Sequence record: PQ330092
DNA: 64,000 nucleotides
Source of the DNA: Escherichia phage JP4
Reading direction: 5' to 3' (one strand)
Shown here: positions 37,534-37,864 of the stretch, piece after piece
How positions within the stretch are numbered: position 1 is the stretch's first letter
Layout of the letters: every line of letters starts with the position of its first letter
Notes under the pieces: generated by a model
Database searches by the model: none
What the model saw: only the letters and a program-made list of their open reading frames with translations
What the model was told of the DNA's origin: nothing
Program-made: the position numbers and the translations under genes

Positions 37534-37624
37534 TCTATTGACAATATCATCCAGTACTGGCATAATACTTACATCAAGACGAGAACGTCACTAACCCATA
37601 GGGTGCACAAATGTAACTGTATAA

Positions 37625-37670
37625 TATTGATCAAAAAATGATCTGATCAATACTTGATCAATTTGCGTAA
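37625..37670. promoter_or_regulatory. cluster of four GATC sites (TGATCA / GATCTGATCA / TGATCA) in 320-bp non-coding region
   Basis: Four GATC within ~40 bp; region also carries a promoter (TTGACA..CATAAT ~37549) and ACCCATAGGGTGCACAAATGTA motif. Confidence 0.4.
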
Positions 37671-37864
37671 AGTAGTATAATTCTATGCAGTTGGTTAGAC
37701 GAAAGGTTATGATTAGTAGTGCAAGTGTATAAAAATTTTCATGGTGTATCGTTCCGCACATATGGCAATGAATATGTGGTATCATGTGGATTGGAAAAAG
37801 TAAGAACAAGTAATATTATTGTCGCATTACAGTACTATAGTATTTTTATAATGAGGTTAAAATA

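Follow-up and report, generated by a model that had tools for sequence, protein, structure and literature searches.

Analysis of a 64,000-nt stretch of the Escherichia phage JP4 genome (record PQ330092; in the following, the window) concerned a compact optional cassette upstream of a TraR/DksA-like gene, in which four GATC sites are arranged as two paired-GATC dyads, O1 and O2, in the promoter region of a small gene (Table 1). In the original prediction the locus had been described as a gene-free island without any credible open reading frame (ORF), holding a promoter, a GCACCC-type motif and a quoted 40-nt string with four GATC sites. The string ATTGATCAAAAAATGATCTGATCAATACTTGATCAATTTG was indeed located at 37626-37665, and its GATC sites span 31 bp. 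The promoter was likewise recovered as P1 and was joined by a second one, P3; the GCACCC-type motif corresponds to GGGTGCA within a longer leader motif, and the TraR/DksA-like gene is the next sizeable gene downstream. By contrast, the description as gene-free did not hold: the 48-aa ORF in front of the TraR/DksA-like gene is coding, as seen from substitution patterns, family membership and existing annotations. At 185 bp (37534-37718), the non-coding part of the cassette is roughly double the size of neighbouring spacers (64-105 bp).

Table 1. Features of the cassette locus and of the terminal repeat in the window.
Feature	Position	Strand	Basis or remark
Direct terminal repeat (DTR), one full copy, 20,114 bp	26792-46905	+	Exact repeat, offset 20114
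9-bp direct repeat TTAAAATAA, left copy	37525-37533	+	Last codons and stop of the 65-aa ORF; sequence comparison
Optional cassette, 332 bp; last 9 bp are the right copy of TTAAAATAA	37534-37865	+	Exactly missing from phAPEC6
Promoter P1, TTGACA-17-CATAAT, TG extended -10, sigma70-type, strong	37538-37566	+	11/12
Leader motif CTAACCCATAGGGTGCACAAATGTAACTG	37590-37619	+	Core CCCAYMGGGTGCA at 37595-37607; GGGTGCA, GCACCC-type
TGTATAAT, possible extended -10	37618-37625	+	Not conserved beyond Asteriusvirus
Dyad O1 TGATCAAAAAATGATCT, GATC at 37629 and 37640	37628-37644		Repeat analysis (direct and inverted repeat)
Dyad O2 TGATCAATACTTGATCA, GATC at 37645 and 37656; right half is the P3 -35	37644-37660		Repeat analysis
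Promoter P3, TTGATC-16-TATAAT, proximal promoter of the small gene	37654-37681	+	10/12
Shine-Dalgarno-like GAAAGG, 12 nt 5' of the GTG start	37701-37706	+	AAAGG kept between alleles in a diverged stretch
Small gene, 48 aa, GTG start; stop overlaps the DksA-like ATG (TAATG)	37719-37865	+	dN/dS (non-synonymous to synonymous substitution rates), PHROG, annotation
TraR/DksA-like C4 zinc-finger gene	37865-38122	+	Pfam zf-dskA_traR PF01258, E 3e-9; phrog_54, E 2e-18
Second cassette copy, identical, in the second DTR copy	57648-57979	+	Offset-20114 identity

The cassette lies within a DTR, about 10.7 kb inward, and at 10.8-12.3 kb in those relatives whose records start at the DTR. The second DTR copy begins at 46906 and was followed without mismatch at an offset of 20,114 up to position 64000, being incomplete since the window ends first; hence all features at 26792-43886 are present twice and the non-redundant part of the window comprises 46.9 kb (1-46905). 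The window presents the right end of the unique genome followed by one DTR copy and a second DTR, and thus spans right and left genome ends joined together, or a junction as in a concatemer. For Asteriusvirus, DTR lengths of 20,993 bp (fEgEco12) and 21,525 bp (vB_Ec-M-J) have been reported (PMC13070987), and the DTR is annotated in the vB_Ec-M-J record. Similarity search with the 851 bp around the cassette identified the Asteriusvirus jumbo coliphage UB as best match (98.8%), followed by PBECO4 and SP27 at about 97% and 121Q at 88%, which places the window in an Asteriusvirus jumbo phage.

The limits of the cassette were revealed by phAPEC6, which lacks exactly these 332 bp and in which the stop of the 65-aa ORF overlaps the DksA-like ATG; the right copy of the 9-bp repeat is located at 37857-37865. 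The cassette-less state is common to about nine close-relative Asteriusvirus records, whereas the full cassette was found in 26 Asteriusvirus records and in two alleles. Type A comprises 14 records, including the window, PBECO4 and UB, at an identity of at least 98.8%, and type B, represented by 121Q, vB_Ec-M-J, Turkey3/5, JNE01 and others, shows about 79% identity overall, with near-identical cassette ends and a central 200 bp that is about 60% identical between types. In Asteriusvirus records the cluster segment is present once per genome copy. The flanking genes are 92-99% identical regardless of cassette type, and because their similarity is mosaic and does not follow the cassette type, the two alleles look like old modules that were swapped by recombination. 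The presence/absence difference may go back to an insertion or to a deletion of the cassette. In the more distant relatives 7t3, Munch and fENko-Kae01, the DksA-like gene is preceded by another gene and a terminator. An origin of the cassette as tandem duplication of the upstream 65-aa gene, considered since both genes end in LK followed by the stop, was rejected as hhalign detected no similarity.

Comparison of the two alleles showed that the small ORF, despite a nucleotide identity of about 60%, has acquired neither stops nor indels and keeps its length and frame. Substitutions at codon positions 1, 2 and 3 number 11, 7 and 20, and the dN/dS ratio is 0.19-0.31 for the coding frame and exceeds 1 for both alternative frames. 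Moreover, the window protein matches PHROG family phrog_38664 over its entire length (residues 1-48 on profile positions 1-48 of 48, E 4.4e-35), matches to this family were also obtained for the type B protein (E 9e-34) and a homolog from Erwinia phage Hallingskeid (E 5.8e-7), and the gene is an annotated coding sequence in 121Q (gp293), PBECO4 (gp253), JNE01, Turkey3/5 and CMSTMSU. On this comparative evidence the ORF is a real coding gene under purifying selection. Its long Shine-Dalgarno spacing and its non-ATG start, which is TTG in type B instead of GTG, suggest weak translation, and the DksA-like gene is probably translationally coupled to it via the TAATG overlap. In the CMSTMSU record (UNVERIFIED_ORG) the DksA-like gene is unannotated and about 58% identical in a fixed-register comparison, which suggests a frameshift, indel or sequencing error in this region.

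Upstream of the small gene, P1 is part of a promoter/leader unit of about 90 bp, copies of which occur elsewhere in the DTR and in RaK2, K64-1, Muenster and GAP32, and sigma70-type early promoters are known in RaK2-like phages (PMC5259590). The -10 context of P3, GTATAATTCT, is invariant in both alleles, and its -35 is weak in type B. The core of the leader motif has 17 matches in the window, i.e., nine per DTR copy, compared with 0.11 expected; they are located at 27880(-), 29975, 30031(-), 31563(-), 35937, 37595, 39952, 43226 and 45479 and recur at +20114, except for 45479, the twin of which lies beyond the window end. The core is usually followed by N4-6 and TGTAWCT and is always located about 30-40 nt downstream of a promoter. 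A structured leader RNA at CCCAYMGGGTGCA was rejected, since the z-score of the single-sequence fold was -0.8 and RNAalifold analysis of 11 copies gave a weak 7-bp stem without compensatory changes, so that an outer stem which seemed by eye to covary was not supported; a search of the whole window against Rfam gave nothing at gathering score, and 37400-38000 had no match at E<=1. Several of the repeated units (about 35905-35935, 39920-39950, 43195-43225 and 45445-45475) display by eye a terminator-looking hairpin, e.g., AGGGATTGACTCCGGTCAGTCCCTTT, which holds the -35 TTGACT of the next promoter (TTGACT-17-TATTAT), and a second promoter with an A/T-rich upstream element comes after.

This organization is reminiscent of the promoter-early stem-loop (PeSL) cassettes of T4-type phages (PMC2839356, PMC4122927): sigma70 promoter units are repeated in a hyperplastic region of small non-essential genes, a conserved promoter unit bounds indels and allele swaps, here on the left side, and neighbouring DTR units place the -35 TTGACT in the hairpin seen by eye, which a terminator scan of 36000-39500 did not call. 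Contrarily to PeSL cassettes, the present one occurs in the RaK2-like jumbo group, its P1 is without hairpin, the units add the leader motif, and its right junction is the 9-bp microhomology instead of a promoter unit.

Both dyads have the form TGATCA-N5-TGATCA, i.e., abutting 17-bp elements with GATC pairs 11 bp apart, and O1 and O2 jointly constitute a 37-bp near-palindrome (37626-37662). In type B, O1 is kept (CGATCAATAAATGATCA) and a single half-site GGATCAAT stands at the -35, while a different O2, TGATCAA(T/A)TCTTGATCA, directly follows the invariant TATAAT. The sites have therefore been turned over between the alleles with motif and spacing retained. Erwinia phage Hallingskeid shows a nucleotide match to only 53 bp of the cassette, yet the same layout was found: the leader motif is followed by O1 TGATCAAGAAATGATCA, TTGACT, O2 TGATCAATAATTGATCT around a -10-like AATAAT, a Shine-Dalgarno sequence and the ATG of the homolog of the 48-aa protein. 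A profile search detected six further small-protein homologs, and the same architecture is present at all nine of their loci, where dyads, -35 and leader are invariant and the spacers between these parts vary. At all ten Hallingskeid-like loci O1 lies just 5' of TTGAC(T/A), and O2 takes the form TGATC-AATAAT-TGATC around the -10; the leader motif is kept upstream of the dyads in Hallingskeid as well as in metagenomic relatives.

More distant family members were retrieved by an exhaustive search with hidden Markov models. Three of them (P0011, P0012 and P0020), 19-33% identical to the window protein, carry a GATC-N7-GATC dyad over the -35, -10 or +1; a fourth, P0009, possesses TTGATCAA half-sites only, with the partner GATCs lost, and no dyad was found in the upstream regions of P0015 and P0017. 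Altogether, dyads are present in six of the nine lineages examined. The pattern GATC-N7-GATC occurs 23 times in the 2,304 nt upstream of the small gene, while the rest of these loci (30,262 nt) contains no such pair; the 126.8 kb sampled beyond the DTR (window 1-26791, PBECO4 1-50000 and PBECO4 230001-280000) is likewise free of it. With respect to the promoter, O2 is placed at the -35 of P3 in the window, at the -10 in Hallingskeid-like loci and P0012, and at +1 in type B and P0011. The T before and the A after GATC are largely conserved among alleles and Hallingskeid-like loci, and the GATC core with its 11-bp spacing is the most conserved feature of the cluster across lineages. Formation of a conserved RNA or DNA hairpin by the cluster (z = -2.45) was rejected, since this would need O1 and O2 to abut, which they do neither in type B nor at Hallingskeid-like loci.

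The density of four sites in 31 bp compares with a background of 1.5-4 per kb. Given the 104 GATC sites of the non-redundant 46.9 kb and uniform placement, P for such a cluster is 0.003, or 0.011 at the higher density of the DTR; the second-tightest span of four GATC sites in the window is 91 bp, and outside the DTR (126.8 kb) the tightest is at least 337 bp. Clustering by itself is nevertheless not compelling, because GATC ranks just 5th of 255 when all 4-mers are ordered by their tightest cluster, and it is conservation across lineages that makes the GATC feature real. Measured against GATC frequency in the rest of the genome, as the original prediction had proposed, the cluster proved non-random and the frequency not uniform, with an observed/expected (O/E) ratio of 0.28-0.53 outside the DTR, i.e., 2-3.5-fold too rare, and of 1.16 inside. 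Whatever disfavours GATC in the genome body seems not to act on the early/DTR region.

The 5th rank among 4-mers could also be taken to mean that the cluster has no function, having arisen as a by-product when an 11-16-bp unit slipped or was duplicated, or being a scar left by recombination when the cassette was inserted. This would be in line with the fact that O1 and O2 are an imperfect 16-bp tandem duplication and that unrelated viral contigs often contain 11-bp tandem repeats with TGATCA; in the reverse direction, from dyads to gene, searching IMG/VR for the double dyad was uninformative, as nearly all of the 77 matches were unrelated 11-bp tandem repeats in collagen-like coding sequence or iteron-like arrays. 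However, the dyads are kept in lineages whose surrounding DNA is unalignable, site turnover preserves motif and 11-bp spacing, and the 23 pairs upstream of the small gene compare with none elsewhere at these loci, which renders a functionless by-product very improbable.

In part, the original prediction had pointed to an origin. An origin of replication like oriC or P1 oriR, or a sequestration site of this kind, would account for clustered GATC sites at a density far above background and for the A/T-rich stretch. This interpretation was rejected and is hardly credible: the element is precisely missing from about nine close relatives and thus dispensable, it is present in two copies per virion genome due to its location in the DTR, and in other phages, where its genomic position is unrelated, it belongs to the small-gene promoter. 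Furthermore, no exact DnaA box TTATNCACA (0 mismatches allowed) was found in the DTR, the matches in the window being confined to 10636 and 17642, and the cumulative GC skew rises steadily through 37.5 kb without a switch. The promoter half of that earlier proposal, in contrast, stays in contention as a Dam/SeqA-sensitive promoter.

We attach equally little probability to a pac-like or other DNA-processing site for terminase or recombinase. The phage P1 pac site consists of clustered, Dam-dependent TGATCA/G hexamers, and the dyads resemble these. Additionally, an unrelated GC-rich phage carries four to five copies of TTGATCAAAAAATGATCA, identical to the window O1, between terminase-like genes. 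The cassette element, however, is located 10.7 kb inside the DTR and not at a terminus, can be dispensed with in relatives, and is always found on the promoter directly upstream of the small gene. As to the GC-rich phage itself, which is unrelated to the jumbo phages, the copies follow a 20-bp period in an A/T-rich spacer (IMG/VR L090 1370-1450, L041 2840-2930) flanked by a terminase-small-subunit-like gene and a 139-aa gene on one side and a large terminase gene on the other, and together may form a pac-like or iteron array.

With moderate confidence, we propose that O1 and O2 act as paired operators in the promoter region of an optional early cassette with a small gene, each of the four GATC sites being a half-site. 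Most likely the dyads serve as a repressor-type operator, which may respond to Dam methylation: all half-sites are Dam sites, so any protein reading the major groove there is probably methylation-sensitive. We propose that a sequence-specific protein bound to O1-O2 would occlude P3 and obstruct read-through from P1, which would set the level or timing of the small protein and, via translational coupling, would also control the DksA-like protein in cassette-bearing phages. We infer all three parts of this proposal, namely protein binding at the dyads, the identity of the binder and repression as its effect. Among the candidate binders, which are not mutually exclusive, the cassette's own product is ranked first, followed by a Dam/SeqA switch and Fis. 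That the dyad is unchanged while the protein diverges to about 30% identity would generally favour a reader supplied by the host.

Several promoters are known to be controlled by Dam methylation or targeted by SeqA, including IS10 pIN, the IS50 transposase promoter, Mu mom, pap and agn43, as are oriC in sequestration and, for SeqA, lambda pR. The dyads could accordingly be an epigenetic switch, in which readout of the paired GATC sites depends on their methylation by host Dam or the phage's own N6-adenine methyltransferase; either SeqA would bind pairs on one helical face or methylation would directly alter the -35 or -10, and expression would differ between incoming, replicating and mature phage DNA. 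Like those targets, the cassette has several GATC sites on promoter elements, overlapping the -35, -10 or +1 (in the window, the -35 TTGATC at 37654-37659), in pairs about one helical turn apart. GATC with this 11-bp spacing is the most invariant property and is kept despite changes in the flanks (CGATCA and GGATCA in type B, GGATCA in P0020). The depletion of GATC in the genome body suggests that GATC matters to the phage, and the presence of Dam in the host, which the original prediction had presupposed, is in accordance with the close relatives having E. coli and Salmonella, both Dam+ enterobacteria, as hosts. Additionally, Asteriusvirus encodes an N6-adenine methyltransferase (PMC7247149), which may or may not be Dam-like; in the window, no methyltransferase was found among the ten scanned ORFs of at least 150 aa, out of 17 in its non-DTR part. 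Contrarily to Dam/SeqA targets, the dyads are conserved beyond GATC and are tied, as two 17-bp elements, to one small-gene family. As the largely conserved T at -1 and A at +1/+2 are needed by neither Dam nor SeqA, a sequence-specific binder is indicated. P0009 retains TTGATCAA half-sites without partner GATCs, and the DTR as a whole is not GATC-depleted. Taking both sides into account, we regard a Dam/SeqA switch as unlikely.

The same flanking positions bear on Fis, a growth-phase protein of the host, which might activate or repress the early promoter, as the 15-bp core of each dyad, GATCA-N5(A/T-rich)-TGATC, comes close to the consensus of its binding site. When compared with the Fis consensus GNTYAAAWTTTRANC (PMC6907758, Table 2), most of the cores, i.e., GATCAAAAAATGATC, GATCAATAAATGATC, GATCAAGAAATGATC, GATCAATAATTGATC and GATCAATACTTGATC, fit all ten specified flank positions and have A/T-rich centres, which is a consensus match only, and it would also be in line with Fis that the tolerated substitutions directly flank the 15-bp core (T to C at -8 and A to T at +8). 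Against this, the consensus-free positions -6/+6 and the positions -4/+4, where Y/R is allowed, are invariably A/T and C/G in the dyads, i.e., fixed as GATC, and neither the lone half-sites (type B -35 and P0012) nor the dyad of P0020 (G at +3) fit. Being conserved across Enterobacterales, Fis would account for dyads that are identical between phages of E. coli and of Erwinia. Overall, Fis as the binder appears somewhat more doubtful still than the epigenetic switch.

Concerning the cassette's own product, we tentatively consider the 48-aa protein as a possible autorepressor. It is basic and is predicted to form four beta-strands and a helix in an AP2-like fold (AlphaFold2 (AF2) pLDDT 89). Basic residues on the sheet are conserved, with K/R at position 5 in all 20 family members and R25 in 18 of 20, and a DNA-binding role is plausible from a single structural comparison of a simple topology. 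In BFVD many small uncharacterised phage proteins share the fold. By contrast, Foldseek against PDB returned no significant match, a PDB sequence search gave none, and none of the 20 family members matched Pfam at E<=1, AP2 domain (PF00847) included. The protein differs from AP2/ERF and integrase arm-type domains in that it stands alone, without a fused endonuclease, integrase or eukaryotic transcription factor, and in that it has no sequence match to Pfam AP2 or any PDB chain. As an autorepressor, this basic AP2-like protein would act on its own promoter, and binding could depend on methylation, each half-site being a Dam site.

P22 Arc and Mnt and lambda Cro are small autoregulated phage repressors with dyad operators on their own promoters. 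The cassette resembles these systems in that a protein of about 50 aa is encoded in an early region and subsites about 11 bp apart overlap its own promoter, and DNA would likewise be read by a beta-sheet. It differs from them in the predicted AP2-like fold, with four strands and a helix instead of ribbon-helix-helix or helix-turn-helix, in half-sites that are all Dam sites, and in its location as an optional cassette within a terminal repeat, binding being putative here. A more specific version, according to which the AP2-like protein reads the methylation state of its own operator as a module portable among RaK2-like phages, is considered improbable; binding would then differ between fully methylated incoming and hemi- or unmethylated replicating DNA.

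Further observations were made on the protein family and on the window in general. The 59-aa ORF at 36817-36996 (phrog_9374) has a YVVSYG strand motif in common with the small gene, and hhalign gave a weak profile match between the two proteins (probability 45%, E 2e-4); one fold of small beta-strand/helix proteins may be represented in the DTR by several diverged members. A ParE_like (PF24732) gene (L104 77-328 and L106 488-739) is located one or two genes upstream of two distant family members, and one of these two contigs, of 360 kb, is another jumbo phage. Regarding sequence composition, GCGC is completely absent from 146.9 kb (window 1-46905 and the two PBECO4 samples), where base composition predicts about 130 occurrences; the phage in which this 4-bp palindrome is avoided altogether is reported to encode a C5-cytosine methyltransferase. 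AGTACT occurs 238 times in 46.9 kb as compared to about 15.5 expected (O/E 12-20 in the window and about 5 in the PBECO4 body samples), often within CAGTACTG, and is found in promoters as well as in coding sequence (4.0 per kb inside ORFs, 6.5 outside). Immediately ahead of the right terminal repeat, the minus strand carries an array of about eleven genes in a row (7382-21652), each of 245-460 aa; RCC1-like repeat (beta-propeller) domains were detected in all six genes scanned, and the others are paralog-like in size and position only.

The combination of a small phage regulator, its operator and a possibly Dam-sensitive promoter is of a familiar kind and not a new category, and in the literature searched on RaK2-like phages no module like the cassette is described. 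Nevertheless, nearly all genes in the early regions and terminal repeats of RaK2-like jumbo phages are tiny and functionally unassigned, and no regulation is known to have been described for them. Here, phrog_38664, which is without assigned function so far, gains a testable role, and a compact conserved cis-element is defined, consisting of two paired-GATC dyads and a sigma70 promoter. If the small protein binds the dyads, it would represent a minimal AP2-like repressor of a bacterial virus, and if methylation matters, Dam-dependent control would gain a new example in a virulent phage. Otherwise, the locus is an ordinary promoter-operator region, and the gene-free island a missed small gene. 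Should the protein itself read methylation, the element would constitute a replication-coupled timer for the early operon, including its DksA-like RNA polymerase modulator. Via the DksA-like gene, the element could influence the takeover of host RNA polymerase in cassette-bearing phages.

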